49,005 bases of DNA from positions 1-49,005 of the forward strand of contig JBGPWJ010000001.1 in assembly GCA_041492115.1 (NCBI GenBank), in the 5' to 3' direction. The position numbers and the translations under genes were made by a program. Each line of letters begins with the position of its first letter. Position 1 is the first letter of the stretch. Shown piece after piece: positions 18,168 through 37,852 of this stretch. This DNA comes from Gammaproteobacteria bacterium. Lineage in GTDB: Bacteria; Pseudomonadota; Gammaproteobacteria; JBBQDK01. The notes beneath the pieces are model-generated. The model saw nothing but the letters and a program-made list of their open reading frames with translations. It did not search any database and was not told the origin of the DNA.

Positions 18168-18179
18168 TATAAGTAGACG

Positions 18180-18268: not shown

Positions 18269-18316
18269 GTCGAAGCGTTGCAGGTCTAGTTAACAGCACC
18301 GCCATTAACATGTTCA

Positions 18317-18847: not shown

Positions 18848-18856
18848 AGTTTGTCG

Positions 18857-21446: not shown

Positions 21447-21480
21447 ATCGATCTCTGATGCTCAAACAAATTAAAAATAC

Positions 21481-21504
21481 TCTCTCCCCGGAGGGGAGGG
21501 GGGG
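21481..21504. repeat. REP-like hairpin, copy 4, in the ccmC-ccmD spacer
   Basis: The sequence tctctccccggaggggaggggggg abuts the ccmC stop codon. Confidence 0.5.
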
Positions 21505-22269: not shown

Positions 22270-22367
22270 GTCTGTAATGGCACATGTACCACATGGTAAA
22301 TACGATTAGTAGCCTGGGTTAAGCTTGCGGCTGTGGCCTGCGGCGCGCTTTGCGCTTTATCAATATT

Positions 22368-23045
22368 TTAACTGACGCTGATGCGCAGCGCCGCTGCCGC
22401 GGCCATGGGCGCCAGCGTCAGCGCCAGGGCCAGTAGCGCGGCCAGGAAATACAGTTGCGCCAGCACCGGCAGGCCGATGGCGGCGTCGGATACAGCGCTG
22501 GCCGCGAAGATCAGCACCGGCACGTACAGCGGCAACACCAGCAGCGATAACAGCACGCCGCCGCGCCGCAATCCCACCGTGAGCGCCACACCGATGGCGC
22601 CGATCAGACTCAGTACCGGCGTGCCCAGCGCCAAACTGGCCAGCAATGCGCCCATCGAAGTCGGCGGCAGGTGCAACAAGACGCCCAATAAAGGCGCCAC
22701 CAGGATCAGTGGTATGCCAGTGACAATCCAATGGGCGATGATCTTTGTCAATACCAGAAGTGCTGTCGGGTGCGGGCTGAGCAGCAGTTGTTCCAGGCTG
22801 CCGTCCTCGAAATCGGAACGGAAGATGCCCTCCAGCGACAGTAGTGCCGCCAGCAGCGCCGCCACCCAGATCACTCCTGGCGCGATAGTTTGCAGAGTAT
22901 GCGAGTCCGGGCCCACGCCGAGTGGGAACAGGCTCACAACCATGACAAAAAACAGCAGCGGATTGGCCAGTTCACCGCGATGCCGCAAGGCCAGGGTCAG
23001 ATCACGGCGCAGTAATGCGAGACAGGCTTGGTTCAGATTGGGCAT
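22368..23045 (-). CDS. ccmB: Heme exporter permease CcmB
   Basis: I set the start at MPNLNQACLALLRRDLTLALR (ATG at 23045, 2 nt after the ccmA stop), which matches the typical CcmB N-terminus. The 12 upstream codons in the ORF track overlap ccmA. Confidence 0.9.
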   Translation of the reverse strand: MPNLNQACLALLRRDLTLALRHRGELANPLLFFVMVVSLFPLGVGPDSHTLQTIAPGVIWVAALLAALLSLEGIFRSDFEDGSLEQLLLSPHPTALLVLTKIIAHWIVTGIPLILVAPLLGVLLHLPPTSMGALLASLALGTPVLSLIGAIGVALTVGLRRGGVLLSLLVLPLYVPVLIFAASAVSDAAIGLPVLAQLYFLAALLALALTLAPMAAAAALRISVS

Positions 23046-23047
23046 GA

Positions 23048-23716
23048 TCAGGCGCCGATCTGCAGGCTCAGCGGCGTGCATTGCTGCAGCACCACCGGCT
23101 GATGCGTGGTGAGCACGGCGATGCCACCGTTACGGCTGTGGGTTTCGAGCAGGGATTCGATCAGGGCCTTGCCGGTGCGGTCCAGCGCGGTGAAAGGTTC
23201 ATCGAGCACCCACAGGCGCGCGTCCAGTACCAGCAGCCGCGCCAGTGCCACGCGCCGCCGTTGTCCCGCCGACAAAGTGCGCGCCGGCAGATCCTCGAAG
23301 CCATACAGGCCGACCTGTTTGATGACCTCGTCCAGCGTAACCCCGGCGCGCGGGCGGCCCAGGGACTGGGACATGCGCAGATTCTCGCGCGGACTGAGGT
23401 CCTCCTTGATGCCGTGCATATGGCCGACATAGGCGACATCGGCCAGGAACTCGTGGCGCATGTCCTGGATATCCGTGCCCTGCCAACGCACACAGCCCTG
23501 CGCCGGCAGCAGCAGGCCGCAGAGCATCCGCAGCAGGCTGGTTTTGCCGCTGCCGTTGGGGCCTTCCACTTGGAGGATCTGGCCGGGCAGGAGGGTGAAG
23601 CTGAGTCCGGCGAACAGGGTGCGGTCATGGCGCACGCAGTGCAGGTCCAATGCCTCGAAACAGTTCTGCGTAAGGGGTATAGCGGCGGTGGGCATGCTGG
23701 CGGGGGATGAATCCAT
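23048..23716 (-). CDS. ccmA: Heme exporter ATP-binding protein CcmA
   Basis: Walker A is GPNGSGKTSLLRML, the ABC signature is LSAGQRRRVALARL, and Walker B is LWVLDEP. Confidence 0.9.
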   Translation of the reverse strand: MDSSPASMPTAAIPLTQNCFEALDLHCVRHDRTLFAGLSFTLLPGQILQVEGPNGSGKTSLLRMLCGLLLPAQGCVRWQGTDIQDMRHEFLADVAYVGHMHGIKEDLSPRENLRMSQSLGRPRAGVTLDEVIKQVGLYGFEDLPARTLSAGQRRRVALARLLVLDARLWVLDEPFTALDRTGKALIESLLETHSRNGGIAVLTTHQPVVLQQCTPLSLQIGA

Positions 23717-23781: not shown

Positions 23782-24540
23782 TCAGGCCGGCACTGCTTCC
23801 GCGTATTCCTTTAGCGCTTTTTCACTGTACTCGAAACGGCCATCGTCGCGATGCCGCAGAATCCCTTGACGTTTCAAGTCCGCCAAGATCCGACTGACGC
23901 TCTCCGCAGTGATGTCCAGCATGGCCGCGATATCCTCGCCCTTCAGCAGCACGACTCTGGATTTACGCTCATCATCGGTGATCTCGGACAGCCAGCAGAT
24001 CAGGTGAGCGACACGTTGTTTCACATTGCCTGACAGCACCATCATGATGTAATCGTCGGTCTGGAACAGCGCGGAAGCCCAACGTTCCATCAACTGACGG
24101 TAGAAACGCGGCTTCTCCATATCCAGTTGCCGCAGCACGCCGATCGGGATGCGGCAGGCATTGACCGGTTGCAGGGCGATCGCCGTGTGGCCATAGGGAC
24201 GTCCGAGCACGCGTTCAAGGCCGATCGAATCAGCGGTCTTCATGAGACGGATGATCCGCTCTCTGCCATCGGGCAGATAGCGCACCAGTTTCACCAGGCC
24301 GCTGCGGATGGTGTAGATGGCGTTATCGTCACTGCCCTGCTGGTAGATGACCGAGCCCTTCTCGTAGCTGAATTCATCGATGGGCTCGTAAATACCCTGG
24401 ATGATGTGGTTGAGATCGCCTGAAGACAGGTCGCTGAACAGTACTTCGTGCAGGATATTGCAGGTGCGGCACACCGACCGTCCGACCCAGGTCGGATAGC
24501 ACATGCATGGGCTGTGATTCTTCATGTTCATAACAAGCAT
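23782..24540 (-). CDS. CRP/FNR-family transcriptional regulator with N-terminal Cys cluster (CxC-x9-CxxC)
   Basis: The N-terminus HSPCMCYPTWVGRSVCRTCNI carries the Cys cluster. A cNMP-binding-like beta-roll (IYQQGSDDNAIYTIRSGLVKL) follows. The C-terminal HTH carries the FNR-type E--SR recognition motif (ITAESVSRIL). Confidence 0.85.
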   Translation of the reverse strand: MLVMNMKNHSPCMCYPTWVGRSVCRTCNILHEVLFSDLSSGDLNHIIQGIYEPIDEFSYEKGSVIYQQGSDDNAIYTIRSGLVKLVRYLPDGRERIIRLMKTADSIGLERVLGRPYGHTAIALQPVNACRIPIGVLRQLDMEKPRFYRQLMERWASALFQTDDYIMMVLSGNVKQRVAHLICWLSEITDDERKSRVVLLKGEDIAAMLDITAESVSRILADLKRQGILRHRDDGRFEYSEKALKEYAEAVPA

Positions 24541-24698
24541 CCGTTTTGCTGATCAGATTCGCCTGGCCGCGCCTGAGTCACAAAGGCTCCAGCATGGATC
24601 CTCTCAGCGTTGGCTATGCCTGACGAGCCTCTTTGTCGGTCCAATGAGAGCAGATTTTTGCCTTGCTGTAATTGCGTTTCATCAAGAAAAGAGGCGAT
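24231..24698. repeat. Segmental duplication, copy A (5' third of the FNR-like gene plus its upstream region)
   Basis: This segment aligns by eye with 28347-28790 at high identity, for example cagcggtcttcatgagacgg versus cagcggccctcatgaggcgg and gattcgcctggccgc in both. Copy A carries an extra insert of about 35 bp in the noncoding part. Confidence 0.8.
24672..24685. promoter_or_regulatory. FNR-box-like site TTGCG-TTTC-ATCAA upstream of the FNR-like gene
   Basis: The right half-site is perfect and the left matches 3 of 5 positions. The site is conserved in the duplicated copy at 28757-28770. Confidence 0.35.
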
Positions 24699-24794: not shown

Positions 24795-25175
24795 CTACTT
24801 CTTCTTGGGCGCGTAGAGCGCCGCGTTCTTGGCAGCATCCTGCTTGGGCTGCTTGGCGATGACCAGTCCCTTCACGTCCTGATAGGTTCCCTCAGGCAGA
24901 ATCTTGTGGGTGAGCAGATGCGCCTTGGTGGCGTAAGGACGGCCAGCGATGATCTTGTCGGCATCAGCATCGCTGACACCAGGGAGTTGCTTCAGTTCTT
25001 CTTTCTTTGCACTGTTGATGTCGACCAGTTCGGTCTTGGCGCTTTTCGGGCTCACTTTGGCCATGCTGGCGGCTTGCTGCGGCGCGTCCGCTGTATTTTC
25101 AGCGGCAAAGGACAGGTTGGCGCTGAGCAGCAGCGCTGCTGCAGTCAGGGCAATGGAGATAGAGTGGCGTTTCAT
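24795..25175 (-). CDS. Secreted helix-hairpin-helix (ComEA-like) protein
   Basis: I set the start at MKRHSISIALTAAALLLSANLSFA (ATG at 25175, RBS AAGGA). The HhH motif is DINSAKKEELKQLPGVSDADADKIIAGRPY. The longer ORF-track form would overlap the upstream cytochrome gene and its hairpins. Confidence 0.75.
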   Translation of the reverse strand: MKRHSISIALTAAALLLSANLSFAAENTADAPQQAASMAKVSPKSAKTELVDINSAKKEELKQLPGVSDADADKIIAGRPYATKAHLLTHKILPEGTYQDVKGLVIAKQPKQDAAKNAALYAPKKK

Positions 25176-25284: not shown

Positions 25285-28272
25285 TCATTGTTGATGAATG
25301 GCGACAGCGTCCACGAGAGTGCCGGAACCATGGCAAGCGAGGCATGCCTCGGCTTTGCCGGCATTTACGCTGGTGGCGCGTGCTTCGTAGATTGCCCCAC
25401 CGTTCGTCGTCATATGCGCCTTTGCCGTACTGGTGTCGTGGCAGGAGTAACAGGCCGAGGCTATCGGTGAATTCACCAGCGTGGTGCTTTGCGCTGGAAC
25501 GGTCTCCCCGCCAGCTCCGGCGATATGCGCCGCTACAGTGACTCCCGCGCCCCCACTGCCATCGGAAGGCGTATAGCCGGCGACAACTGCCCCTTCAGGA
25601 GTGTAGGTGAAGCCATTACCATAGTCATACCCGGTGGTGATATAGGGCGACGTGTTAGCGCCCGCAGAAGTTTTCCCGGTTGCGTCTGTGCTCCACACCA
25701 ATTTTGGTGCCACGGTAGTGCCGCCAGTGGCGCCGAAATTAACGGCGTTAGTCACGTGGCACTGGTTGCAGTCCTTCAGCACGCCCGGATACTGAAGCGT
25801 TGACCAGTCCTTATTCCAGGTGTAGGCCACCGTCCGTTTGCTGCCACCGTGGATGCCATGGATATAGGTGCTGGAATCAACGGCCCAACCACTATTGACG
25901 CGATTACCGTTATGGCAGATGTTGCACGCCGTCGGGTCGTTACGCGCACCACCGTGGAACTCGGGCGAGGTGCCGAGCTGGTCGTGACAGCTGTTGCACT
26001 TGGCGACATCGGTAATCACCCGTCGTGCCGTGTAACCCGTGGCAGCGAGCTTTTTCAGCATTGCCTTGACGATCACGCCACCCGAAGCCGAGGTGTTTGG
26101 ATTAACCGACACGTTGGCGGCGGTGTAGGGATAGTCCGTCACAGTCTTCTGCGTGAAAGTTCCGATCAAAGCACCCGTAACCATTTTAGCAGTGGTGGGT
26201 ATCACAATCGGAGACGGGTTGACGCAGTTGCCGGTTATGGCGCTCGTGCTCGTATTTTGTAAGCAGGTGGCAGTGACAGGCTGCCCGACTGTGTCACCGG
26301 TCAGTGTGGCCGTGAAGTAGCCGTTGGTATCCGCCTGGTAGGCACCGCTGGAAACGGTATTACTCAGACTGCCCGCTTTAGGCGAGCCGGCGTCGACCAG
26401 CAGGTTGGCAAGAGAGACACTGGAGGACGCGTTGAAGTCAGCCGGTGCAGTGATGCCATCCTGAGGCACGGCGTAGGCCACGTACAGGCTCGGGCCGCCC
26501 GCAAATCCGGGTATCGGCTCGTAGGTGGGAGATACTTGCTGAGCACCACCCTTTGCGTTTGTAACCAGAGTCGGCACGGCAAGTGACGTCACCGCAACCC
26601 CATCCATGGTGATCTTGAACGTGATCACTGGCTGTTTGCTGCCGTTCACGGTTACGCTCTTGATGTCGTAAGAGATCGTGGATGCCACATGGGTTCTACC
26701 GTTCTTCCAGGCCCCGGCTATCGAGTTGTTCGCAGTGGCAGTGTTGGTCTGGTGGTAGACAGGAATGGTCGTTGCGTCATGACACAAGGCGCATTGGCTG
26801 TTATCGGGTTTTGCACCACCGACGTGGCCCGTCGCCGTCGTACCGACTGGGTTTTTCGCAGCAACATCCGTATTCCTGTTAGCCAGGGTTATTCCTGAGC
26901 CGGTGGCAAAGTTGATGCCGTCGTGGCAGGAGCCGCAGGCCAGAATGCTGGGTTTGTTCTTCCAGTTGTCGCCATCCGAGGTCATGTTGACTGCGGTTGC
27001 CGAACCATCGTGGCACTTGGTGCAATCCCGCTGGTCCTGCGGGAAGCCGACCAGGTTGTAGCACTGGCCGAGATTCGCAACAGCCTTTGTGGAGTCATAG
27101 CCAACGGCTCCAGGAGTGTTGCAATGGCCATTCAGGTTGTAGCCGGTCTTGACCAGTTGGTCACCCATGTGCGTCTGGTGGATCATGCGGGGGTAGGTGA
27201 ACGCTGCCTCGCCAGTGGTTGTCCTGTAGTATTTTGTCGTAAGGGCGGGAGAACCGTTCGAATTCGTACCCTCGACTACATTGGCAAAACCGTATTTGGT
27301 CTGGTCGGTGTGGCAGGTCACGCAGAGTCTCGGATCATTGCGACCGACAAATGACCCAGGAGGAATCCCGTTGGTAGCACTGGTGGTGCTGACATGGCCG
27401 ATACCCTTGCCATCGTGGCACGCGGTGCAGGAGGCTTTCTCGACGATGTCGCGCATGGTCGCGACAGCTCCACCGGCGGGAACGAAGTCATAGCCTATGT
27501 TGAAGGTATTAACCAGGGGAACAGGAGTCGTTACTTGCACGGCATTCGGGGTATTGGTACCGGTACCAGGTTGGCTGCCTTGGATAACGATTCCCAGACG
27601 GTGCGTCAGAGTCGGTTCATAGCTCACGTCGCCCAGATCGGCTTTAATGTGAGTGGCGTCATCCGTCAGGCCGGCAGCAATTGTAGCGGCCTGCTTGATA
27701 TCCCGGTAGAAAGTGTACTGGTAGGTGCCGTCACCATTGTCGACCAGGGTGCCTTCCTGATCAGGAGTCGGGTAGGTACCTGCCCAAGTCACCCCTCCGT
27801 TCACCACTGCTCCGGTGGTTCCCGTCGCAACCGGTTTGGTTACCAGGTAGTTAACCCACTTGCTGGGGTCGCCGTTCGTGCCGGGTACCAGCTTGGCCAG
27901 CGTAAAGAAAAAGTTGTAGTTCTTGGGAGTAAGCGCGGTGGCGGATTGGGATTGACCGCCAAGCCCAACCACCGGATAGCCATATTGATCGGTCACCTTG
28001 AATTTCACCACGGGTGGGCTGTTGATGCTGACAGTAATGCTGGTGGGATCAATGCTGGGTCTGAGTGCTGTCCACTGGGCAGCCGTCAGGATCGCTCCAT
28101 TTACCGTAGCGGTGGCGTCCTTACCAGGGGCGCCAGGGGCACCAGGAGCGCCAGGAGCGCCAGGGATACCAGCACCAGGGACGCTAACGGTTCCGCTGGA
28201 TCCACCGCCGCAACCGGTCAGCGTACCGATCACCAGGGCCACCAGGCCCAGTCGAACAAGCTTGGATTTCAT
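25285..28272 (-). CDS. OmcA/MtrC-family decaheme c-type cytochrome lipoprotein (995 aa)
   Basis: The lipobox is LTGC (Cys21), followed by a collagen-like stretch GAGIPGAPGAPGAPGAPGK. The ten CXXCH motifs are arranged 5+5 around a central beta-rich domain: CTACH, CVTCH, CTKCH, CGSCH, CALCH / CNSCH, CNICH, CNQCH, CYSCH, CLACH. It is a paralog of the gene at 30859 (shared LVD-GDGTY-YT-Y, Y-PTLTHR-GI and ACGSCHD-INF). Confidence 0.9.
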   Translation of the reverse strand: MKSKLVRLGLVALVIGTLTGCGGGSSGTVSVPGAGIPGAPGAPGAPGAPGKDATATVNGAILTAAQWTALRPSIDPTSITVSINSPPVVKFKVTDQYGYPVVGLGGQSQSATALTPKNYNFFFTLAKLVPGTNGDPSKWVNYLVTKPVATGTTGAVVNGGVTWAGTYPTPDQEGTLVDNGDGTYQYTFYRDIKQAATIAAGLTDDATHIKADLGDVSYEPTLTHRLGIVIQGSQPGTGTNTPNAVQVTTPVPLVNTFNIGYDFVPAGGAVATMRDIVEKASCTACHDGKGIGHVSTTSATNGIPPGSFVGRNDPRLCVTCHTDQTKYGFANVVEGTNSNGSPALTTKYYRTTTGEAAFTYPRMIHQTHMGDQLVKTGYNLNGHCNTPGAVGYDSTKAVANLGQCYNLVGFPQDQRDCTKCHDGSATAVNMTSDGDNWKNKPSILACGSCHDGINFATGSGITLANRNTDVAAKNPVGTTATGHVGGAKPDNSQCALCHDATTIPVYHQTNTATANNSIAGAWKNGRTHVASTISYDIKSVTVNGSKQPVITFKITMDGVAVTSLAVPTLVTNAKGGAQQVSPTYEPIPGFAGGPSLYVAYAVPQDGITAPADFNASSSVSLANLLVDAGSPKAGSLSNTVSSGAYQADTNGYFTATLTGDTVGQPVTATCLQNTSTSAITGNCVNPSPIVIPTTAKMVTGALIGTFTQKTVTDYPYTAANVSVNPNTSASGGVIVKAMLKKLAATGYTARRVITDVAKCNSCHDQLGTSPEFHGGARNDPTACNICHNGNRVNSGWAVDSSTYIHGIHGGSKRTVAYTWNKDWSTLQYPGVLKDCNQCHVTNAVNFGATGGTTVAPKLVWSTDATGKTSAGANTSPYITTGYDYGNGFTYTPEGAVVAGYTPSDGSGGAGVTVAAHIAGAGGETVPAQSTTLVNSPIASACYSCHDTSTAKAHMTTNGGAIYEARATSVNAGKAEACLACHGSGTLVDAVAIHQQ

Positions 28273-28290
28273 GTTTCACCCCTCGCGTTA

Positions 28291-28656
28291 TTAATCATAA
28301 TTGCAACCCGGATAAGAAAACCCGTATTTAAAAACATTTAAAAAAACAGCGGCCCTCATGAGGCGGTTGATCAGCGCTCTGCCATCGGGCAGATGGCGCG
28401 CCAGTTTCACCAGGCCGCTGCGGACGGTGTAGATGGCGTTATCATCACAGCCATGCTGGTAGATGACCGCACCCTTCTCGTAGCTGAGTTCATCGATGGG
28501 CGCGTAAATACCCTGGATGATATGGTCCAACTCGCCTGGAGACCGATCGCTGAACAGTACTTCGTGAAGGATGTTGGAGGTGCGGCATACCGACCGTCCA
28601 ACCCAGGTCGGATAGCACATGCATGGACTATGATTCTTCTGGTTTATCACAAGCAT
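28291..28656 (-). pseudogene. Truncated duplicate of the FNR-like regulator (N-terminal ~103 aa only)
   Basis: MLVINQKNHSPCMCYPTWVGRSVCRTSNILHEVLFSD... parallels the gene at 23782-24540 until homology stops at about 28347. The frame then reads into unrelated sequence. The fourth Cys is replaced (CRTC becomes CRTS). No HTH is present. Confidence 0.7.
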
Positions 28657-28790
28657 CCACTTTGCTGATTAGATTCGCCTGGCCGCTCTTAGCGTTGACC
28701 ATGCCTGCAAGCCTCTTTAGTCAGTTTAATGAGATCAAATTTTTGCCTTGCCGTAATTGCGTATTATCAATATCAAAAAAAAGAAGCGAT
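28347..28790. repeat. Segmental duplication, copy B
   Basis: This is the counterpart of 24231-24698. Together the two copies bracket the ComEA-like and OmcA/MtrC-like genes. Confidence 0.8.
28757..28770. promoter_or_regulatory. FNR-box-like site TTGCG-TATT-ATCAA in the duplicated promoter
   Basis: This is the same half-conserved box as at 24672-24685. It now lies upstream of the pseudo-fnr and decaheme gene pair. Confidence 0.35.
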
Positions 28791-28974
28791 GAAGGAACAT
28801 ATGGAATGATTCAGCGCGTAGCGCGATGTACGACGCTGGAATTGTGTTTTGTCAAAGAGAGCAGCGATGAAGGAGTGCTTTGAGCAATTCTGCGCGAAGC
28901 GCATAGAGCAAGGTATGACGGCTCCCGCGTAGCCGGAGGGCCGGATGTTTTATCGGAGTTCACGCGAAAGCGCG
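28781..28974. repeat. Imperfect direct repeats (78-bp spacing, third partial copy) in a noncoding spacer
   Basis: GCGATGAAGGA occurs at 28786 and 28864. TTC-N-GCGCG-N-AGCGC occurs at 28810 and 28888, and in degenerate form at 28959. Confidence 0.45.
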
Positions 28975-29148
28975 GGTGGATACAAAATATAAAGGCAACC
29001 GGTCCGGCGTCAGTCAGTGTGGGAACTGTGGCGCGGTGCGCAAGATGTCGCGGGCGCCGAAGGCATAAAACTGCCGCCAACTTCTCGCTCCCGAGGGAGC
29101 TAGGGATATCCCGTCGGGTTTCGCGAAAAATGGCGGCACCGTGCCGTG

Positions 29149-29775
29149 TTATTCAGATTCCGCGTAATCCTTCGGCAGTTTATGGCCAATGCCCTTGTGG
29201 CAATCGATGCAGGTTTCCCCCGATGCCTGCTGGTGTTCGAGCGTGTGCTTCTTGCGCGCGCTCTTATCCTGCAGTTCGGTATTCATCGATTCAAAGGAAT
29301 GGCAGTTGCGGCATTCCCGTGAATCGGTTTTTTTCATCTTGGCCCAGACATCCTTGGCAAGACTGAGGCGTACTGCTGTGAACTTTTCCTTGGTGTTAAG
29401 GGTGCCCATCAACCATATAGGTAATTCATTCAGCGTGGCCGCAATCTTGGCTTTCATTTTCGGTAAAAAAACTTTTGGGACGTGACAATCGGAACAGATG
29501 GCCCGCACACCGCTGGCATTCTTGTAATGCACGCTTTCCTGGTATTCAGCGAACATGTTGTCTTTCATTTCATGACAGGAATTTGCGCAGAACTCCAGAC
29601 TATTGGTGTAATGCAGTACCTCCTCGAAGCCGGCCCAAATGGCACTGCCAATAAATAACGCCAGGAATCCGCCGAGCGGTACGCCCACCATCCACCAGAC
29701 TTTGGATCTGCGCCATACGAAATGCCTGTGGGAATCAGGGTCGTGACTTTCTTTTGGATCGGACATGCACAGCAC
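29149..29775 (-). CDS. NapC/NirT-family membrane-anchored tetraheme cytochrome c (CymA-like quinol dehydrogenase)
   Basis: The N-terminal TM is VWWMVGVPLGGFLALFIGSAIWAGF. The four CXXCH motifs are CANSCH-context CHEM, CSDCH, CRNCH and CIDCH. Confidence 0.9.
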   Translation of the reverse strand: MLCMSDPKESHDPDSHRHFVWRRSKVWWMVGVPLGGFLALFIGSAIWAGFEEVLHYTNSLEFCANSCHEMKDNMFAEYQESVHYKNASGVRAICSDCHVPKVFLPKMKAKIAATLNELPIWLMGTLNTKEKFTAVRLSLAKDVWAKMKKTDSRECRNCHSFESMNTELQDKSARKKHTLEHQQASGETCIDCHKGIGHKLPKDYAESE

Positions 29776-29839
29776 CTCTCGTTAAGCCGTTAGACAAGCG
29801 CGAGCCTTCGCGCCACCTGGAATCGCCATTTCATCCGTA

Positions 29840-30472
29840 TTATTGGAAGCTTCCGAAATAGTTGATGAGGTCGTCGATATCCGTTTTTTGCAGCTTCTCG
29901 AGTTTAGGCTGCATTTTTTTCGGGACGGGACGCTTGTTGGAAGTGAACTCATCAAACGTGTGCTGGATATACGGCATCCACTGTCCGGCCAGAATGCCGG
30001 CATCGTCATCCGGCGAGCTGCCGCCGTTGTCATGGCATTTCTTGCAGTTGGCGTCATGCAGTATCTTGCCGCGCTTGGCCTTGTCCGCATCGAAAGTCTG
30101 TTTTGCGCGGACGAACGGTTTGGAGGATAAATAACCCGCGATGAGTTTCATATCTTCATCCGACAGATCCTTGGTGACCTTGCACATATCCATGGGTTCG
30201 CCTTTGTGTGGGCCGGCGTTGAACTTCACCTCAGGACATGGCCGGTCCTTGTTCTTGTAGTTCTTAAGACTGTCGGTTAGGTAGGCCGCCGAATAACCGC
30301 CGATGATCGGCACATCCGAGGTGGTACTGGCGCCGTCCTTGCCGTGGCAGTCGGCGCAGGTTTCAACTAATTTGTTTACGTCGGCGGCGTCTGCGCTGCT
30401 GACGATGGTTAAACTGCACAGTGCGGTTCCAGCCAACAGCATTGCATATGCGGTGGTCATTTTCGTCTTCAC
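29840..30472 (-). CDS. Periplasmic diheme class-I-type cytochrome c
   Basis: The signal peptide is MKTKMTTAYAMLLAGTALCSLTIVSSADA. The two CXXCH motifs are CADCH and CKKCH. The stop lies 64 nt upstream of the CymA-like gene on the same strand. Confidence 0.85.
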   Translation of the reverse strand: MKTKMTTAYAMLLAGTALCSLTIVSSADAADVNKLVETCADCHGKDGASTTSDVPIIGGYSAAYLTDSLKNYKNKDRPCPEVKFNAGPHKGEPMDMCKVTKDLSDEDMKLIAGYLSSKPFVRAKQTFDADKAKRGKILHDANCKKCHDNGGSSPDDDAGILAGQWMPYIQHTFDEFTSNKRPVPKKMQPKLEKLQKTDIDDLINYFGSFQ

Positions 30473-30656
30473 GTACTGCCCTCCAATTTAAGCGTCGGAA
30501 TCTACGGTTACCCGGCAAGCGCACACATGTCTCAACTCGGCGCTGCGTCGTACCTGGCCCTTAACCTCAGGGATTGCGCGGGTATACTGAGCAACTGCTC
30601 GCAGCAACCAGCGATCTGCTGGATTATCGTATAGCAGACTCCGGCGCGACCTTACA

Positions 30657-30670
30657 TTGACAATTATCAA
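30657..30670. promoter_or_regulatory. FNR/CRP-type box TTGAC-AATT-ATCAA
   Basis: The site matches the TTGAT-N4-ATCAA consensus at 9 of 10 positions. It lies in the divergent promoter region between the diheme/CymA-like operon and mtrCAB. Confidence 0.55.
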
Positions 30671-30755
30671 ACATGAAAGACTCAAGACTGCATATTGATT
30701 ATTTTCTGCACCAAGCAGAACGGCCATTCACTCATCATTCTTGATTTCTCTTCTA

Positions 30756-30769
30756 TTGATTATTGTCAA
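30756..30769. promoter_or_regulatory. FNR/CRP-type box TTGAT-TATT-GTCAA
   Basis: The site matches the consensus at 9 of 10 positions and ends 90 bp upstream of the mtrC-like ATG at 30859. Confidence 0.55.
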
Positions 30770-30858
30770 CGAATCATCAGGCGCGCTATGGCATATGTAG
30801 GCCAAGGTTTTCAGGCATGCAGTATTCTGCAGGTCAACATCCATACAGGAGACGTGCT

Positions 30859-33483
30859 ATGTTCCGGTCTTGCGTAGATTTTCAGTGGGTCAAGCGCATC
30901 CTTGTAGCCGGCGTGATCTCGGTCGCCCTGGGTGGATGTGGTGGCGGGGGTGGCGGGGGCGGTGGCGGCGCGGGCGTGCCGCCCGGCAGCGGCGGCACAG
31001 GTGACGGCGGAACGCCCACATCCAAGCCCTTCCCGAAACCGCCGGCGACGGCGCTCAATATGACGATCAACAGCGTCACCCTCCCACCTAACAGCAGTAG
31101 CCCGCCTGTCCTGGCCGTTGTGCAGTTCACCGTCACGAATGAGAAAGGCGAACGCTTCACAGGGCTGCTCCCCGCTGACCTGCGCTTTAACATCGCCAAG
31201 CTGACACCGGGTACCGGCGGCAATCCGAGCAGGTGGCAGAACTATGTCAACTCCACCCGGCAGAACACAGCGAAAACCGTAACGGCGATGCGAGGGAATG
31301 TGGAAACACCCAAGCTCTACGCACTGGATGGTTCGCCAGACGTAGCAACGGCGGGCACGCTGGTCGATCACGGTGACGGCACCTATACCTACACTTATTA
31401 CACCGATCTCAGCGACGTCTCCGTGACTTGCCCTGCACCGTGCGTGGACGCGCAGGGTAATGCGTTGGATACCACCTATGACCCAACCTTGACGCACCGC
31501 GTCGGCATTTATACCCGCAGCCCTTTGCCGACGGTGAACGGGATCAAAGACGTCAGGCCGTCGGATGGCGCCACCAGCAATCTGTTCTCGCGCGAAATCG
31601 TCACCACGGCGAAGTGCAACGAGTGCCACAACAAGCTCAACGTTCACGGCGGGCGCATCGATACCCAATTGTGCGCCACCTGCCACAACCCGGGTTCCTG
31701 GGAAGCCAACACCGGCAATACCGTGGATTTCAAGGTCTACATCCATAAAATCCATCGCGGGACAAGTCTGCCAAGCACCGTTGCCGGTACGCCCTATATG
31801 ATCGGGACAGACGATTTCTCGGATGTAGTCTTTCCGCAGGAAATCCGCAATTGCACGAAATGCCATGATGGCACCGTTGGCGCGCTGAACGCGACCGCCG
31901 AGGGCGACAACTGGAAAACCGGTCTGAGCCGGGCAGCCTGCGGCTCGTGCCATGACAATATTAATTTCTTAGTGAGCGGGCAAGCGACTTACACGGCCAC
32001 CCCGATAGCCCAACGGACCGGCCACTCGGGCGGTGTCATGACGGACGACTCTCAGTGCAGCACTTGCCACGTAGTGGGTGGGTTTGCCGGTAGCGTCGCG
32101 GCAGTTCATAACAACACCGAGGCGGGTGTGTTCATGGCCAAAGTGCAAAGGGCTAAGTTCCAATTCAATATCATTGAAATCTGCGGCACAGCCGTTGCTG
32201 CAAATCCAGTGTGCGCACCGGGCGTGACACCGACGGTGAAATTCTCGGTGACCGATCCGACGGGTGCGACAACGCACGGTCATGGCAACGCCTACAAGCT
32301 CTTTCCCGATGCCAGTGCTGCCGATCCCGAGTTCTGGGACACGGGTACGGCCAAGGCGGTCGGCAGCATGAGCGTTGACATCGCCTGGGATACGCGCGAC
32401 TACAACAACACGGGTGGCTATGCCGCGCGTCCGGCCCGCGCCAACCAGGTCAATGTCTTTGGCGCCGCCGCCGCGACCAACTACGGCTTCGCGTCGGTCC
32501 AACTCCCGCTCTATCCCAAGGCTACGGACAATGGGGATGGCACATATACCGTCACAGCACTGGGACCGATCCCGGACGGTACCGTGTTCCCGAATGTTGC
32601 CGCCACGGGCAGTGGCGCGGTCGCGATAGAAGGCCGCGCAACCGCGGATCCGCTCAGCACCATTCCTGCCACGACCGCCAGGCTTCGGATACCGATCAAG
32701 GGCGAAGTCGCCTACTTCCGCATCACCGATACCACGCCGGTAGCGCGTCGGGTTGCGGTGGACGCCATCACCAAGTGCGACAACTGTCACGATCAGCTGA
32801 GCCTGCACGGCGGCAGCCGTAATGACAATGTCCAGCTCTGCGTTCTCTGCCACAACCCGAACAATACCGACGCGCCCGCGAGTGCACGCATCAAGTTCGC
32901 CAATGGCCTGTCGACCGGCGTGGCGGCCGCCGGCAAGCCGGATGACGGCAAGAAGGAGGAGGCCATCGACTTCAAGCGCATGATTCACGGCATCCATGCC
33001 GGTGGGGCCACCTCGCTGGACGGCAGCACGACCCTAAACGGTTTCCGCACCAAGGGCATCATGGTCAGCGGCACCGACTTCAGCGATGTGCGCTTCCCGG
33101 GCATCCTCAATGACTGCACCACCTGCCACAACACCGGCACATATGAGTTGAAGGGGATCTGGGAAACGCCGACGCAAAATCATATCCTGGCGAGCACTGT
33201 CGACTCGACGCCAGGCCTGACATCGTCGAACACGTCCACCGAAGTCAATAACGCGCTGAAAAATCCGGGGGATGACTATAACATCTCGCCGATTGCGGCG
33301 GTGTGCTCGTCCTGCCATGACAGCGATGTGCAGAAGAGTCACATGCGGGACCAGGGCGCGTTATTTGGCGACGATCTTGGCAACTCCATACAGAGCCTGA
33401 TACCGGACGTCGGTGAGAGCTGCCCGGTATGCCACGGTCCTAACACTCTCTTGGATGTGAAGGTCGTCCATAATGTGCCGTAA
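30859..33483 (+). CDS. mtrC: OmcA/MtrC-family decaheme c-type cytochrome lipoprotein
   Basis: I set the start at MFRSCVDFQWVKRILVAGVISVALGGC (RBS AGGAG, 7 nt before the ATG). The lipobox Cys27 is followed by ten Gly. The ten CXXCH motifs are arranged 5+5: CNECH, CATCH, CTKCH, CGSCH, CSTCH / CDNCH, CVLCH, CTTCH, CSSCH, CPVCH. It sits first in an mtrC-A-B gene order. Confidence 0.9.
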   Translation: MFRSCVDFQWVKRILVAGVISVALGGCGGGGGGGGGGAGVPPGSGGTGDGGTPTSKPFPKPPATALNMTINSVTLPPNSSSPPVLAVVQFTVTNEKGERFTGLLPADLRFNIAKLTPGTGGNPSRWQNYVNSTRQNTAKTVTAMRGNVETPKLYALDGSPDVATAGTLVDHGDGTYTYTYYTDLSDVSVTCPAPCVDAQGNALDTTYDPTLTHRVGIYTRSPLPTVNGIKDVRPSDGATSNLFSREIVTTAKCNECHNKLNVHGGRIDTQLCATCHNPGSWEANTGNTVDFKVYIHKIHRGTSLPSTVAGTPYMIGTDDFSDVVFPQEIRNCTKCHDGTVGALNATAEGDNWKTGLSRAACGSCHDNINFLVSGQATYTATPIAQRTGHSGGVMTDDSQCSTCHVVGGFAGSVAAVHNNTEAGVFMAKVQRAKFQFNIIEICGTAVAANPVCAPGVTPTVKFSVTDPTGATTHGHGNAYKLFPDASAADPEFWDTGTAKAVGSMSVDIAWDTRDYNNTGGYAARPARANQVNVFGAAAATNYGFASVQLPLYPKATDNGDGTYTVTALGPIPDGTVFPNVAATGSGAVAIEGRATADPLSTIPATTARLRIPIKGEVAYFRITDTTPVARRVAVDAITKCDNCHDQLSLHGGSRNDNVQLCVLCHNPNNTDAPASARIKFANGLSTGVAAAGKPDDGKKEEAIDFKRMIHGIHAGGATSLDGSTTLNGFRTKGIMVSGTDFSDVRFPGILNDCTTCHNTGTYELKGIWETPTQNHILASTVDSTPGLTSSNTSTEVNNALKNPGDDYNISPIAAVCSSCHDSDVQKSHMRDQGALFGDDLGNSIQSLIPDVGESCPVCHGPNTLLDVKVVHNVP

Positions 33484-33671
33484 GTCTGCTCACTGAAAGA
33501 GTCTGGGGGCCGCGTGTCGGCTCCCCAGGCGGGAAGGTCATAACAGTGCCGGCCCTCTGAGCAATGCAGGCGGCGGCGACCGATGGACGAATCGACTGCC
33601 GGCAGCCCGCGGCGGTGGCCTCGCAATGAAGAACGGTTACCAAAGGCAACTTAACCACATTGGCTGACGAC

Positions 33672-34649
33672 ATGAATGACAAACACACACCGATGTATGC
33701 ATTGCTCTTCCTGCTGTGTTTCTTAGTGGGTGTTGCAGCCCGAGCCGAGGCGCCAGCCGCAGCCAGTCAGACATCGGCAACCGAGGATGCCAATAAAGCA
33801 TCGGCCTATACGGAAAAAGGCGCCGACACCTGTCTCAAATGTCACGATGAGGATTCGGAGTTCCCGGTCTTCGACATCTTCAAGACCAAACACGCGCAGC
33901 CGGCGGACAAGCGCTCGCCTTTTGCCGGCCTGCAGTGCGAAGCCTGTCATGGGCCCGGTGCCAATCATGCCAAGCAGGTCCCAAAAGGTCATAAACAAGC
34001 GCCAATTATCAAATACGGCGCCAAATCCTGGGTCTCCACCGAAAAGCAGAACCAGGTCTGTCTCGGCTGTCATGAGAACCAGAATCGCATTACCTGGAAG
34101 GGCGGCGCGCACAGCAACGGCGATGTCGCCTGTGTCAGTTGCCACAAGATCCACACCCCGCATGATCAGATTCTGAGTACCACCGAACAGCCGGATGTCT
34201 GCTACAAATGCCATAAGCAGCAGCGCGCTGACTTCATGAAACCGTCCACCCATCCGGTGCGTGCCGGGCAGATGGCTTGCAGCGACTGCCACAAGGTGCA
34301 CGGTGCGGTCACAGCCAATCTGCTGATCAAACCGACGCTCAACGAAACCTGTTATACCTGTCATGCCGAAAAGCGCGGACCGTTCCTGTGGGAGCATGCT
34401 CCGGTGGCCGAAGATTGCAGCAACTGTCACACAGTGCATGGCTCGATTCATCCGTCATTGCTTACCAAACGGGCGCCGCTGCTTTGTCAGCAGTGCCATT
34501 CGCAGGCCGGTCATCCGAGCACCGAGCATGGTCCTGGAGATTTACCCAGCGGCACTCCATCAGGCTTCCTACTGTCGGGCGCCTGTCTCAACTGCCATTC
34601 GCAAGTTCACGGGTCGAACCATCCTTCCGGTGTGAAACTGATGCGCTGA
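33672..34649 (+). CDS. mtrA: MtrA/DmsE-family periplasmic decaheme c-type cytochrome
   Basis: The protein has a signal peptide (YALLFLLCFLVGVAARAEA) and ten CXXCH motifs in about 300 aa. The family-typical C-terminus is CLNCHSQVHGSNHPSG. I prefer the ATG at 33672 over the TTG at 33660. Confidence 0.92.
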   Translation: MNDKHTPMYALLFLLCFLVGVAARAEAPAAASQTSATEDANKASAYTEKGADTCLKCHDEDSEFPVFDIFKTKHAQPADKRSPFAGLQCEACHGPGANHAKQVPKGHKQAPIIKYGAKSWVSTEKQNQVCLGCHENQNRITWKGGAHSNGDVACVSCHKIHTPHDQILSTTEQPDVCYKCHKQQRADFMKPSTHPVRAGQMACSDCHKVHGAVTANLLIKPTLNETCYTCHAEKRGPFLWEHAPVAEDCSNCHTVHGSIHPSLLTKRAPLLCQQCHSQAGHPSTEHGPGDLPSGTPSGFLLSGACLNCHSQVHGSNHPSGVKLMR

Positions 34650-34731
34650 CGGGCGGCAGCGGGTATGCGGCGAGCCGGAGCCGCGCGCAGACGACAGAGA
34701 CACAGAGTGGGATGTCACAGAGGCTACGACG

Positions 34732-36816
34732 ATGAACCGAAATACGACGATGAAGACTGCCAATGGTCTGGCCCTGATCGTGCTCGCGACGCTTGCCTTG
34801 TGCCTGCCGGCACCGGCCAGAGCGGATGACCAGACCGCGGCCGCGCCGGGCACTTCCAAGTGGAAATGCAAGTTCTGCCTGTTCGAGGAAGGACGCAGCG
34901 GCCTACTGGATCTCGGTGTCGGCTCTGTCTCAAACAATTCTTTCAAATTCGACGAATACGCCGGTTTCAATCAACTGGGCCACTTCCTGGTCGGTAACGC
35001 GACCGGTCGTTATCGCGGTAAAGACGCGGCCTATCTGGATCTTTCCGTGACCGACCTTGGGCTGGATTCACGCATCCTGGGCATCGAAGGCGGCAAGCAG
35101 GGCAGATACAAACTGTTTCTGAAATACGCTGAGCTGCCGCATAACATCTCCGACACGGCGCAGACGCCTTTCAGTGGCGCAGGCAGTTCTACCTTGACCT
35201 ATACCGGCGTGCTGCAAGGCGTGGATCTCGACACGCAACGCAAGCGCATTGACCTGGGCGGGTCACTGATTCCTGTTACGCACTGGGAGTATGCCGTCAA
35301 GTTTCGACACGAGACCAAGGATGGCCAGCGCGGTATGGCCGGCACTTTCTTCTTCAGCGCGGCGCAACTGATCCAGCCGGTGGATTACGTCACCGATGAG
35401 GTCGATGTCTCCGCGGCGTACAGCGCCTCGAAATGGCAGGCCAAGTTGGCGTACTACGGCTCGACATTCAAAAACAGCGACGCGTCTCTGACTTGGCAGA
35501 ATCCCTATCTTCCGCCGGACACGCTCCCTGACAAAGGACAGCTCGCGCTGCCGCCCAGCAATCAGTTTCACCAGATCGTGCTCTCGTCCGGCTATCAGTT
35601 CACCGACCGGACCCGTGCCATGGGCGAAGTCGCCATCGGCCGCATGACGCAGGACGAGGCATTTCTTCCCGTCACGACCAATACCAATCTCCCGGCTATC
35701 ACCTTGCCGCGCGCCTCATTGAATGGTCAGGTCGACACCGTAAACGCCAACTTCAAGGTCGTCTCAGCCCCCATCGATAAACTCCGGCTCAATGCGGCTT
35801 ACACCTACAGTGACAGAAACAACAAGACGCCGCAGTCGGCGTACGAGTGGGTGACGACCGATATCTTCCCGCGCCCGGCACGCACCAATCAGCCGTACAG
35901 CTTCACGCGCAACCTGCTCAATCTGAGCGCGGATTACCGTCTCCCGAAGTATGCGAAGCTCGGCGCCGGTTATGACTATGACACCTACAAACGGAATCTG
36001 CAGGATTTCAACAAGACCACAGAGAACACCCTTTGGGGGAAAGTCAGCACTACCGTTGGCGAGAATGTGGATATGATGCTCAAGGCCGCCCACGCTTCAC
36101 GCAATGTCTCGGACTACCAACCCAATCCCGAGATCGATCCTGCGCAGAATCCGCTGATGCGCAAATACAATATGGCGGACCGCGACCGTAACACGGTGGG
36201 CTTTCATGCCGGCATCACACCGCTGCAGCGGCTCAACATCGGCGTTGGCGTCGATTATGCCTGGGATAACTATTCGAAGTCGCTGGTCGGGTTGTTGGAC
36301 GGCGTACAAAGTGATCTGAGCGGTGATGCATCACTGATACTGACAGAAAAAACCAGCCTGACGCTCTTTGCCAATCATGAGATGATCAAGTCGAGCCAGG
36401 GCGGTAGCCAGGCCGTCCTCACCATACAGGATTGGTCTGCACGGAACCGCGACACGACCGATACCGCCGGTCTCGGCGTCAAGTACCGCGCCAACGCGAA
36501 ACTGGATATCGGCGCCGATTATTCCGCCTCGCGCTCCACCGGGCGGATCTCAGTCAGAGACTTTTCCCTGGCTCAGGCTGACCAGCCATTCCCCGATCTC
36601 ACCACGAAACTCGACACCGTGAAGATCTACGGCACCTATCGTCTGAAACCGGCGGTAGCTTTGCACGCGGCCTATTGGTATGAACGCTACAACAGCACTG
36701 ACTGGACCCTCGATGGCATTACACCCTTCACTATTCCCAATGTCATCACCCTGGGCCAGCTCAGCCCTTCGTATCACGTCAACGTGGTGACCCTGTCGGT
36801 GCGGTATAGCTTCTGA
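34732..36816 (+). CDS. mtrB: MtrB/PioB-family decaheme-associated outer-membrane beta-barrel
   Basis: The protein has a signal peptide and an N-terminal CXXC (KWKCKFCLFEE). A beta-barrel of about 650 aa ends in VVTLSVRYSF. The gene lies immediately downstream of mtrA. Confidence 0.9.
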   Translation: MNRNTTMKTANGLALIVLATLALCLPAPARADDQTAAAPGTSKWKCKFCLFEEGRSGLLDLGVGSVSNNSFKFDEYAGFNQLGHFLVGNATGRYRGKDAAYLDLSVTDLGLDSRILGIEGGKQGRYKLFLKYAELPHNISDTAQTPFSGAGSSTLTYTGVLQGVDLDTQRKRIDLGGSLIPVTHWEYAVKFRHETKDGQRGMAGTFFFSAAQLIQPVDYVTDEVDVSAAYSASKWQAKLAYYGSTFKNSDASLTWQNPYLPPDTLPDKGQLALPPSNQFHQIVLSSGYQFTDRTRAMGEVAIGRMTQDEAFLPVTTNTNLPAITLPRASLNGQVDTVNANFKVVSAPIDKLRLNAAYTYSDRNNKTPQSAYEWVTTDIFPRPARTNQPYSFTRNLLNLSADYRLPKYAKLGAGYDYDTYKRNLQDFNKTTENTLWGKVSTTVGENVDMMLKAAHASRNVSDYQPNPEIDPAQNPLMRKYNMADRDRNTVGFHAGITPLQRLNIGVGVDYAWDNYSKSLVGLLDGVQSDLSGDASLILTEKTSLTLFANHEMIKSSQGGSQAVLTIQDWSARNRDTTDTAGLGVKYRANAKLDIGADYSASRSTGRISVRDFSLAQADQPFPDLTTKLDTVKIYGTYRLKPAVALHAAYWYERYNSTDWTLDGITPFTIPNVITLGQLSPSYHVNVVTLSVRYSF

Positions 36817-36917
36817 TCTGTTGCCCGAAGCAATTGGCGGCGGGCAATGTAAGAGGTGGGTTATGTAGGGGCGAGTTTGAAGCCTGCTCGCCTCCACGCA
36901 GCAGGTTCAGTTACAAC

Positions 36918-37736
36918 TTATATTTCCTGCAACGAATAACTGTAGCGAGAATCGGTGAGCGGATCAGCGGCTGCATCTTCGTTGTGCGTTTGCCGGGGCC
37001 GCGCCGCGCCACCGACGCCGTTCGGGGGCGCGAGGTGCAGAGGACTGCCGGCCAGCATCTGCAACTGGTTGCGATCGCGGATATGGATGCCGCCGCGCGG
37101 TGCGTCGATGATGCCGTCACGCTGCAATCTGGCCATGATACGGCTGACCGTTTCCACGGTGAGCCCCAGCACCTCCGCTATTTCACTCCGCGACAGGTGC
37201 AGTGGCAGGAGCTCCTCCAGCATATCATCGGTTCTTTTTGGCGCGAGACTCAACAGAAAGGAGGCAAGTTTCTCGATGGAACTTTTCTGTCCCAGCACGC
37301 GTATCAGACTGCGTGCCTGAACCAGTTGTTCATTCATCGCCTGCAACACGTTCAGCGATACTTTTGGATTTTCAGCCAGAACCTGCATCATGTCTCGATG
37401 CTTGATTCTGCACACCACGGTCGGCGTGAGACATTCCGCCGTATAGCTGTGGACAGCATCGCCGATGTTGTCGAAGCCCAGCAGGTAACCGGCGCCGACC
37501 AGCCCGATGATATGCTCGTTGCCATCGATACCCGATGTGGTCAGTTTGATCTGACCACTGCGGATCATGAACAGATACTGTGACGGTTCGCTGGAACGAA
37601 ACAGCACATCATGCGCGTCGCTGACGTGCCGACTGAGCATGCCGCGGATCTCACACACCTGCCCTTCGGTAAGGCCCGCGTAGAGTTTCGCCTCGCAGAA
37701 CAGGCACTCTTCGTTATGGCATGAACAGACACTCAT
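36918..37736 (-). CDS. CRP/FNR-family transcriptional regulator with N-terminal Cys cluster (CxC-x4-CxxC)
   Basis: The N-terminus is MSVCSCHNEECLFCEAKLY. It is followed by a cNMP-like beta-roll and an HTH with the E--SR motif (LTVETVSRIM). Confidence 0.85.
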   Translation of the reverse strand: MSVCSCHNEECLFCEAKLYAGLTEGQVCEIRGMLSRHVSDAHDVLFRSSEPSQYLFMIRSGQIKLTTSGIDGNEHIIGLVGAGYLLGFDNIGDAVHSYTAECLTPTVVCRIKHRDMMQVLAENPKVSLNVLQAMNEQLVQARSLIRVLGQKSSIEKLASFLLSLAPKRTDDMLEELLPLHLSRSEIAEVLGLTVETVSRIMARLQRDGIIDAPRGGIHIRDRNQLQMLAGSPLHLAPPNGVGGAARPRQTHNEDAAADPLTDSRYSYSLQEI

Positions 37737-37838: not shown

Positions 37839-37852
37839 TTGACGATTGTCAA
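37839..37852. promoter_or_regulatory. Perfect palindrome TTGAC-GATT-GTCAA (FNR/FixK-type TTGA-N6-TCAA box)
   Basis: The site lies about 100 bp upstream of the CRP/FNR gene start at 37736. Confidence 0.5.

Follow-up and report, generated by a model that had tools for sequence, protein, structure and literature searches.

A Probable Mtr-Type Extracellular Electron Transfer Locus with Two Surface Decaheme Cytochromes and Predicted FNR-Type Control in an Uncultured Gammaproteobacterium

The 49,005-nucleotide (nt) contig JBGPWJ010000001.1 of an uncultured gammaproteobacterium, analyzed over its whole length and hereafter called the window, contains an mtr gene cluster that very probably encodes an Mtr-type porin-cytochrome pathway connecting quinol in the inner membrane with the cell surface. 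The designation as an Mtr-type extracellular electron transfer locus, made in an initial annotation of this DNA, was borne out by profile searches and structural comparisons: MtrC, MtrA and MtrB exceed the curated NCBIfam cut-offs, and MtrA and MtrB align with the Shewanella baltica structure (PDB entry 6R2Q). The cluster appears to be a mosaic, in which a Group 3-type core in the sense of Baker et al. 2022 (PMC8805035) is combined with a Group 4-type module of a long decaheme cytochrome and a small helix-hairpin-helix (HhH) protein, placed behind a duplicated promoter and about 100 codons of an FNR-family regulator gene.

Gene Organization of the mtr Locus

Genes were called by listing open reading frames (ORFs) and counting CXXCH heme motifs, protein families were scored against the curated cut-offs of NCBIfam and against Pfam, and structures were compared with the PDB. 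Each of the nine main genes has an uninterrupted ORF, and their heme motifs are preserved except for site 1 of the NapC-like protein. The locus and its flanks comprise the following features (window coordinates, strand, description):

16375–23716, minus: ccmA, B, C, (D), E, F, G, H and I, System I cytochrome c maturation operon (NCBIfam)
23782–24540, minus: fnrI, full-length Crp/FNR-family regulator (Pfam cNMP_binding, HTH_Crp_2)
24795–25175, minus: small secreted ComEA-like HhH protein, 126 aa (Pfam HHH_3)
25285–28272, minus: long OmcA/MtrC-family decaheme lipoprotein, 995 aa (10 CXXCH, lipobox LTGC, TIGR03507)
28291–28656, minus: truncated copy of fnrI (about 100 sensor-domain codons and an unrelated 20-aa tail)
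28657–29148, no strand: duplicated regulator promoter/leader with FNR-like boxes, the inferred promoter of the truncated fnr, long cytochrome and HhH genes
29149–29766, minus: NapC/NirT-family (CymA-like) membrane-anchored tetraheme quinol dehydrogenase (Pfam Cytochrom_NNT)
29840–30472, minus: PdsA-like periplasmic diheme cytochrome c (2 CXXCH; NF049874 match below cut-off)
30473–30858, no strand: divergent pdsA/mtrC control region with two FNR boxes (motif scan)
30859–33483, plus: core MtrC, 874-aa decaheme surface lipoprotein (10 CXXCH, lipobox LGGC, TIGR03507)
33672–34649, plus: MtrA, periplasmic decaheme cytochrome (10 CXXCH, CLNCHSQVHGSNHPSG tail, TIGR03508)
34732–36816, plus: MtrB outer-membrane beta-barrel, 694 aa (TIGR03509, Pfam MtrB_PioB; CKFC at residues 45–48)
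36918–37736, minus: fnrH, FNR-type regulator convergent to mtrB (Pfam cNMP_binding, HTH_Crp_2, Crp)

The ORFs and CXXCH counts agree with the initial annotation on the mtrC-mtrA-mtrB order, with a 10-heme lipoprotein, a 10-heme MtrA bearing the CLNCHSQVHGSNHPSG tail and a barrel protein, and on a second 10-heme lipoprotein encoded on the opposite strand. Two of its descriptions needed adjustment. The NapC/NirT-type and diheme cytochrome genes are both present and divergent from mtrC, but the tetraheme protein has three canonical CXXCH motifs and one CX3CH. Likewise, of the two FNR-type regulators said to flank the locus, the right-hand one (fnrH) is in place, whereas the full-length left-hand gene lies outside the 25285–37736 range assigned to the locus, which holds only its truncated copy. 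A scan of the window against Rfam gave zero matches, and scans of the window for promoters and terminators gave counts at or under the shuffle expectation.

The MtrAB Core and the CXXC Motif of MtrB

MtrA scores 305 bits with the DmsE-family model TIGR03508 (cut-off 192) and matches chain A of 6R2Q over its full length (E-value 1e-94). The mtrB gene starts 82 nt after mtrA, and its product scores 493 bits with TIGR03509 (cut-off 240) and 575 bits with Pfam MtrB_PioB; residues 28–693 match chain B of 6R2Q (E-value 3e-85). An OmcA/MtrC-family decaheme lipoprotein adjoins mtrAB, as is characteristic of MtrCAB. The profile check suggested at the outset (OmcA/MtrC, DmsE/MtrA and MtrB/PioB models) returned scores above the curated cut-offs throughout; with the OmcA/MtrC model TIGR03507 (cut-off 209) these are 470 bits for core MtrC and 421 bits for the long paralog.

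For comparative analysis, genomes were scanned with an MtrA profile and the nearest 80 loci (at least 46% identity) were taken from named genomes; no Sideroxydans, Gallionella isolate, Rhodopseudomonas or Shewanella is within those 80 loci. The proteins of the window served as queries against the ORFs called in each locus, and nearest neighbors were determined by BLASTP. Individual loci are referred to by L numbers.

The CKFC of MtrB represents the metal-reducer-type signature, an N-terminal CXXC, and aligns with the CKGC of the S. baltica protein in 6R2Q. The initial annotation stated that this motif is reported to characterize metal-reducing Gammaproteobacteria, which is correct and goes back to Wee et al. 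2014, where it was proposed as their signature (as cited in PMC12175506). According to the same citing paper, S. oneidensis loses Fe(III) reduction when its MtrB carries C42A in this motif (PMC12175506). However, the further suggestion that the motif argues for outward electron flow did not survive comparison with related MtrB proteins, 67 of 72 of which carry it in the alignment. Carriers include metagenome-assembled genomes (MAGs) of Gallionellaceae, Thiodiazotropha, Thioalkalivibrio and Acidiferrobacteraceae. The clear exceptions are three loci (L072, L076 and L081) in which no mtrC was detected and which group as a separate clade in the MtrA tree, and the other two CXXC-negative entries (L016 and L031) are alignment or frameshift artefacts. 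In three loci CXXC is present and mtrC is absent within the fetched flanks. The MtrA and MtrB of the window group with complete mtrCAB loci and separately from the clade devoid of both mtrC and CXXC. Because the motif is so widespread, including in lineages named for iron or sulfur oxidizers, and its clear exceptions lack mtrC, CXXC tracks the MtrC-associated class of MtrB rather than physiological direction, which makes it unsuitable as a marker of reductive direction.

Surface Decaheme Cytochromes

The two surface cytochromes of the window share 26% identity and, because of this low value, represent distinct subfamilies rather than a recent duplication. The nearest named relative of the long paralog is a copy from a Burkholderiales MAG (56% by BLASTP), and the long cytochrome of L005 is 40% identical to it; for core MtrC the nearest proteins come from gammaproteobacterial cymA-pdsA-type loci (43–44%). 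The 874-aa start adopted for core MtrC is that of an identical NCBI protein, the ORF form being 906 aa long.

Both cytochromes had been flagged as unusually long, each with some 270 residues before the first heme motif. The latter figure is roughly right (the first motif starts at position 282 in the long paralog and at position 253 in MtrC). The lengths, however, are unremarkable: database homologs of core MtrC are mostly 780–870 aa long and those of the long paralog mostly 900–1150 aa, and in the 80 related loci, where nearly all such proteins are decaheme, the median is 783 aa for the MtrC type and 950 aa for the long type. Such lengths are typical of hundreds of environmental homologs. The supposed N-terminal extension also disappeared on modeling, which gave the standard four domains. 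The TIGR03507 alignment begins at residue 82 in the long paralog and at residue 118 in the 906-aa form of MtrC, and therefore the pre-heme region corresponds to the normal domain I of the family; a disordered lipoprotein linker and then this usual domain make up the approximately 250–280 residues that precede heme 1.

AlphaFold2 models were built from alignments of 87 sequences for the long paralog (pLDDT 85, pTM 0.79) and 82 sequences for core MtrC (pLDDT 82, pTM 0.76). Disorder in these models is limited to residues 7–53 and 24–55, which comprise the signal peptide, the lipobox and a Gly/Pro-rich linker. In Foldseek searches against the PDB each model obtained 13 significant matches, all to OmcA, MtrC, UndA or MtrF and over essentially the whole length, with a target-normalized TM-score of 0.67–0.73 between core MtrC and OmcA and MtrC; no other fold reached significance for either model. 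An extra domain in the long cytochromes was considered and ruled out on the strength of these confident full-length matches. Since the models match only these four proteins and do so along their whole length, the extra 120–240 residues represent loop and sheet expansions spread over the four standard domains.

Two pairs of non-heme cysteines in core MtrC (30859–33483) are kept in at least 90% of its 82 homologs, namely CPAPC at residues 191/195 in domain I and CX9C at residues 442/452 at the start of domain III. The latter pair presumably lies at about the position of the conserved disulfide of Shewanella MtrC. No comparable conserved cysteine pair was found among the homologs of the long paralog.

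Predicted Quinol Dehydrogenase and Periplasmic Carrier

The NapC-like protein has one N-terminal transmembrane helix and a strong match to Pfam Cytochrom_NNT (E-value 1e-60, 205 bits versus a gathering score of 24), while its 208 bits with TIGR02161 remain under the 310-bit cut-off. In place of the four canonical CXXCH motifs of the NapC/NirT family it has three, the first site being CANSCH (CX3CH, residues 60–65) with the CHEM context after the motif kept. The same alignment column holds CXXCH in 15 of 18 relatives. Two of 17 related NapC-like proteins have a CX3CH of their own in this column (CSSACH in L019 and CGTTCH in L051), and a sequencing error at CANSCH is unlikely given these independent occurrences.

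The diheme cytochrome matches the PdsA model NF049874 over its full length (E-value 3e-44) at 151 bits, under the cut-off of 330 bits. It is probably best described as PdsA-like in architecture and context, and not as PdsA proper.

Predicted FNR-Type Regulation and the Duplicated Regulator Promoter

The regulator FnrI has an N-terminal cysteine cluster (C12, C14, C24 and C27), a central cysteine and an ESVSR recognition helix (E--SR), and FnrH has Cys4, 6, 11 and 14, a central cysteine and ETVSR in the recognition helix. Both remain under the 228-bit cut-off of the NCBIfam FNR model NF008365 (111 bits for FnrH, 64 bits for FnrI), FnrI matches the FNR and FixK models weakly, and the cysteine spacing of both regulators is unlike that of E. 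coli FNR. Both proteins are FNR-like and may sense oxygen. The fnrH gene keeps the same position in L001 and L002.

Two FNR boxes with one mismatch each, TTGACAATTATCAA at 30657 and TTGATTATTGTCAA at 30756, lie in the 386-bp pdsA/mtrC intergenic region; the window has only three TTGAT-N4-ATCAA sites within one mismatch, and these are two of them. FNR-like boxes were also found upstream of fnrI (24672–24685) and fnrH (37839–37852), and the duplicated promoter contains boxes with up to two mismatches at 28725, 28757 and 28763. At this threshold of two mismatches, no promoter region of the locus lacks an FNR-like box. In total, there are seven such boxes in 1,418 nt of intergenic DNA of the locus versus 0.48 expected, and none of 5,000 composition-matched shuffles reached seven.

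The only perfect FNR box of the window, TTGATTTATATCAA at 47120–47133, precedes a CoxB/cupredoxin-like gene (47378–47941, plus strand) by about 250 nt. The same regulators may also control this oxidase-related gene.

The promoter in front of the long cytochrome is part of a duplication, visible as direct repeats 24228–24527/28344–28643 (89% identity) and 24632–24685/28717–28770 (83%). The truncated copy thus corresponds to the fnrI segment from its FNR-like box to about codon 100, at 83–89% identity, and then gives way to an AT-rich junction whose end lies 18 nt upstream of the start codon of the long cytochrome. The same breakpoint occurs in the related contigs L085 (ORF 7221–7583) and L086, and the duplication is old for this reason. 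Compared with its L085 ortholog, fnrI shows about 85% identity over codons 4–100 and a ratio of nonsynonymous to synonymous substitution rates (dN/dS) of 0.14. For the truncated copy the ratio between lineages is 0.39, and it is kept as an ORF of about 120 codons where MtrC is only 65% identical. Within the window genome, the synonymous divergence between the fragment and full-length fnrI is only 0.21, which suggests gene conversion between them, a process that could mimic constraint on the fragment. In the window the copy has lost one cysteine of the cluster (CRTSN versus CRTCN), and it may be a pseudogene, act as a leader or encode a small protein. The duplication would have given an FNR-responsive promoter and leader to an acquired long cytochrome-HhH module. 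A Campbell-type single-crossover origin of the flanking repeat was also considered and is unsupported, as betaproteobacterial loci with the module show no such regulator.

The Long Cytochrome-HhH Module

The 126-aa HhH protein, in which a signal peptide is visible, matches the ComEA-related protein of PDB entry 2DUY (E-value 8e-6). Among the related loci, 10 of 14 long-type cytochrome genes are immediately followed by an HhH gene, versus none of 56 MtrC-type ones; examples of the pair are L005, L010, L016, L020, L025, L048, L051, L056 and L079. In Betaproteobacteria the pair is usually located directly upstream of mtrAB, and in L005, the nearest relative of the window by MtrA, the long form alone stands in front of mtrAB. 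In the literature, an HhH gene accompanying long cytochromes is mentioned only by Baker et al. 2022, who reported for Niveibacterium and Aquincola that an HhH gene comes after a "Group 4-type" mtrC (PMC8805035).

The exclusive linkage of HhH to the long type, together with the lone long form in front of mtrAB in L005, leads us to propose, tentatively and with doubt about the combination as a whole, that the long cytochrome and HhH protein could form an exchangeable surface module replacing or supplementing MtrC on the same MtrAB core, that the ComEA-like protein could be its required accessory, and that the module could have been wired into oxygen control by capture of the duplicated regulator promoter/leader. 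The HhH protein might then serve, for example, as a docking or a matrix/DNA-anchoring subunit.

Related Loci and Probable Mosaic Origin

By both MtrA (73%) and MtrB (49%) the nearest relative is the Steroidobacteraceae MAG L005, and the host lineage is probably related to Steroidobacteraceae. In a neighbor-joining tree the MtrA of the window is located among loci from Group 3 taxa, including Niveibacterium (L056), Marinobacter (L023) and Wenzhouxiangellaceae (L068), the reference sequences of Baker et al. not being in this tree. The arrangement of cymA-pdsA divergent from mtrC-mtrA-mtrB recurs in ten loci (L006, L008, L011, L012, L019, L023, L024, L041, L057 and L080), among which is Marinobacter azerbaijanicus. 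According to Baker et al. 2022, mtrCAB/pdsA/cymA clusters occur in Group 2 and in most Group 3 Gammaproteobacteria, and extra mtrC copies are found in 29% of Group 3 (PMC8805035). The differing nearest neighbors of MtrA and MtrB, core MtrC and the long paralog conform to the mosaic composition reported in that study. With pdsA and cymA beside mtrCAB, both divergent from mtrC, the locus fits the Group 3 mtrCAB/pdsA/cymA cluster, a group assigned here by association with named relatives.

The complete 21-kb arrangement is shared with the Logan contigs L085 and L086 and with one JGI contig, in the order ccm, regulator, HhH, long cytochrome, short ORF, cymA and pdsA, followed by mtrC on the opposite strand. 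The short ORF measures 120 aa in the Logan contigs and 62 aa as called in the JGI contig. In these layout-sharing contigs MtrC is 65% and the long cytochrome 72% identical to their counterparts in the window.

One of the related loci, L031, has additional ORFs with 11 and 19 hemes (947–2818, plus strand, and 3559–6369, minus strand) upstream of its mtr cluster.

Proposed Pathway and Direction of Electron Flow

All steps of the proposed pathway rest on homology and gene context. Quinol would be oxidized by the membrane-anchored NapC/CymA-like tetraheme protein, and the PdsA-like diheme cytochrome would ferry the electrons through the periplasm to decaheme MtrA, which, inside the sheath of the MtrB barrel, would span the outer membrane. 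The lipoprotein MtrC would form the external cap, from which electrons could pass to minerals, electrodes or soluble shuttles. The 995-aa decaheme cytochrome and HhH protein would constitute a separate module, acting either as a peripheral partner, comparable to OmcA in Shewanella, or as an alternative cap. Maturation of the 46 predicted heme sites could be provided by the adjacent ccm operon, and the two FNR-type regulators, acting via TTGAT-N4-ATCAA boxes, most likely induce the system at low oxygen. Because of this predicted low-oxygen induction, we favor outward, respiratory electron flow.

Several points weigh against this interpretation. Shewanella needs type II secretion and menaquinone for its Mtr pathway, and genes for neither are on the contig. 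The predicted first heme site of the NapC-like protein is CX3CH, which may differ from CXXCH in maturation and properties. The scores of the NapC-like and PdsA-like proteins are below the curated cut-offs, so their exact roles would rest on gene context. Moreover, direction is unreadable from sequence, close relatives belong to lineages named for sulfur or iron oxidizers, and MtrCAB of S. oneidensis can run in reverse (Baker et al. 2022, PMC8805035).

The last points raise the alternative that these proteins operate mainly in the inward direction, feeding electrons from Fe(II), reduced sulfur minerals or cathodes into the quinone pool, as has been proposed for MtoAB and PioAB. MtrA proteins of 50–58% identity occur in MAGs of Gallionellaceae, Thiodiazotropha, Thioalkalivibrio, Acidiferrobacteraceae and Woeseiaceae, all with CXXC in MtrB, and the JGI annotation of the diheme cytochrome reads 'sulfide dehydrogenase cytochrome subunit'. 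The initial annotation had proposed that clustering of MtrA and MtrB within the Mto/Pio clades would speak against a reductive role, but such a test does not discriminate, because MtoAB and PioAB form no function-specific clade and net direction is not inferable from them (Baker et al. 2022, PMC8805035). Several features of the locus nevertheless make mainly inward flow improbable: surface MtrC is present in two forms, whereas the described Mto/Pio loci lack one; the diheme carrier is PdsA-like and not the MtoD of Mto-type loci; FNR-type control suggests anaerobic induction; and the contig carries no carbon-fixation or sulfur-oxidation genes. Finally, that the cluster is a non-working, horizontally acquired remnant is very hard to credit, since the signs of decay that could be cited (the truncated regulator copy, the non-canonical first heme motif of the NapC-like protein and the known mobility of mtr clusters) are set against nine intact main genes with all other heme motifs preserved, a layout shared, truncated ORF included, by lineages with no more than 65–72% identity in MtrC and the long cytochrome, strong purifying selection on the full-length regulator, and the independent origin of CX3CH in two other intact homologs.

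Neighboring Genes

The ccm operon to the left of the locus encodes proteins that exceed the NCBIfam cut-offs for CcmA, CcmB, CcmC, CcmE, the CcmF/NrfE family, DsbE/CcmG and CcmI, and a CcmH/NrfF-like protein whose match is below the cut-off. The ccmD gene is uncalled in the window and annotated in relatives. Adjacency of ccm to the mtr locus recurs in related contigs, and ccm genes were listed as 'passenger' genes of mtrCAB by Baker et al. 2022 (PMC8805035).

At the left end of the window, positions 2–1816 (plus strand) encode a 5'-truncated polyheme cytochrome that runs off the contig start and contains at least 25 CXXCH motifs with a strict period of about 23 residues. It is followed by a gene (1850–4015, plus strand) for a 721-aa protein with TPR/BamD-like repeats and a C-terminal segment that resembles an outer-membrane barrel and ends in GYRWNF. 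Together these two genes may encode a further porin-cytochrome system of a different kind. The interval from the polyheme gene to the ccm operon also contains genes for a 1066-aa MalT/LuxR-type regulator (4594–7794, plus strand) and two small ORFs (8441–9190 and 9636–10355, both plus strand), one of them PEP-CTERM-like. This stretch has a low GC content (0.47–0.52 versus about 0.60 elsewhere) and may be a separately acquired segment.

Significance of the Locus

With this locus, a further uncultured proteobacterial lineage joins the likely electroactive bacteria. The locus also provides a clear example of modular Mtr assembly, in which a core conduit, a quinol dehydrogenase-carrier pair, ccm genes and a second surface cytochrome with its HhH partner are combined. 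The presence of FNR-type boxes in every promoter region offers a testable regulatory model. It should be noted that this type of locus is already catalogued in many environmental bacteria, and that its cytochrome lengths and CXXC motif are normal for its clade. The details added here, namely the FNR boxes, the proposed promoter capture, the CX3CH site and the tight HhH linkage, are modest, and the current understanding of Mtr systems is unchanged.

Comparison with Known Mtr Systems

Among the described systems, we compared the locus with the Group 3 clusters of Gamma- and Betaproteobacteria defined by Baker et al. 2022 (PMC8805035). It shares with them cymA-pdsA divergent from mtrCAB, adjacent ccmA-I genes and an extra mtrC copy, and its named relatives are among the Group 3 taxa Marinobacter, Thioalkalivibrio, Wenzhouxiangellaceae and Niveibacterium. 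In contrast to the Group 3 description, the extra copy in the window is a Group 4-type MtrC with HhH, encoded on the opposite strand behind the duplicated regulator promoter, and the locus is flanked by FNR-type regulators, whereas FNR/Crp appears nowhere in PMC8805035.

The MtrCAB-OmcA systems of Shewanella oneidensis and S. baltica (PDB entries 6R2Q, 4LM8 and 4LMH) have in common with the window decaheme MtrA and MtrC, an MtrB barrel with an N-terminal CXXC, a second surface decaheme cytochrome and the four-domain fold seen in both surface cytochromes of the window. However, the latter are only 15–21% identical to the Shewanella proteins over the structural alignment and have about 120 and 240 residues inserted relative to the TIGR03507 model. 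Furthermore, cymA and the PdsA-type carrier are encoded within the locus of the window, whereas cymA, fccA and cctA of Shewanella are located elsewhere in the genome.

The Group 2 clusters of Aeromonas and Vibrio (Conley et al. 2018, 2020, as cited in PMC8805035) resemble the locus in having a diheme PdsA-type shuttle beside mtrCAB. Unlike in Group 2, the PdsA match in the window reaches 151 of the 330 bits of the cut-off, and the quinol dehydrogenase is NapC/CymA-like, NetBCD being given by Baker et al. as the alternative in mtrCAB/pdsA clusters; extra mtrC copies are absent from Group 2 clusters (PMC8805035).

Finally, the Fe(II)-oxidation conduits MtoAB of Sideroxydans and Gallionella and PioAB of Rhodopseudomonas palustris share with the locus an MtrA-type decaheme cytochrome and an MtrB-type barrel, and the Mto system also has a NapC-family partner, MtoC. 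Mto/Pio loci are mtrAB homologs without an mtrC-family gene, whereas the window has two such genes, and in the place of the MtoD encoded by Mto-type loci its carrier is a diheme PdsA-like cytochrome.

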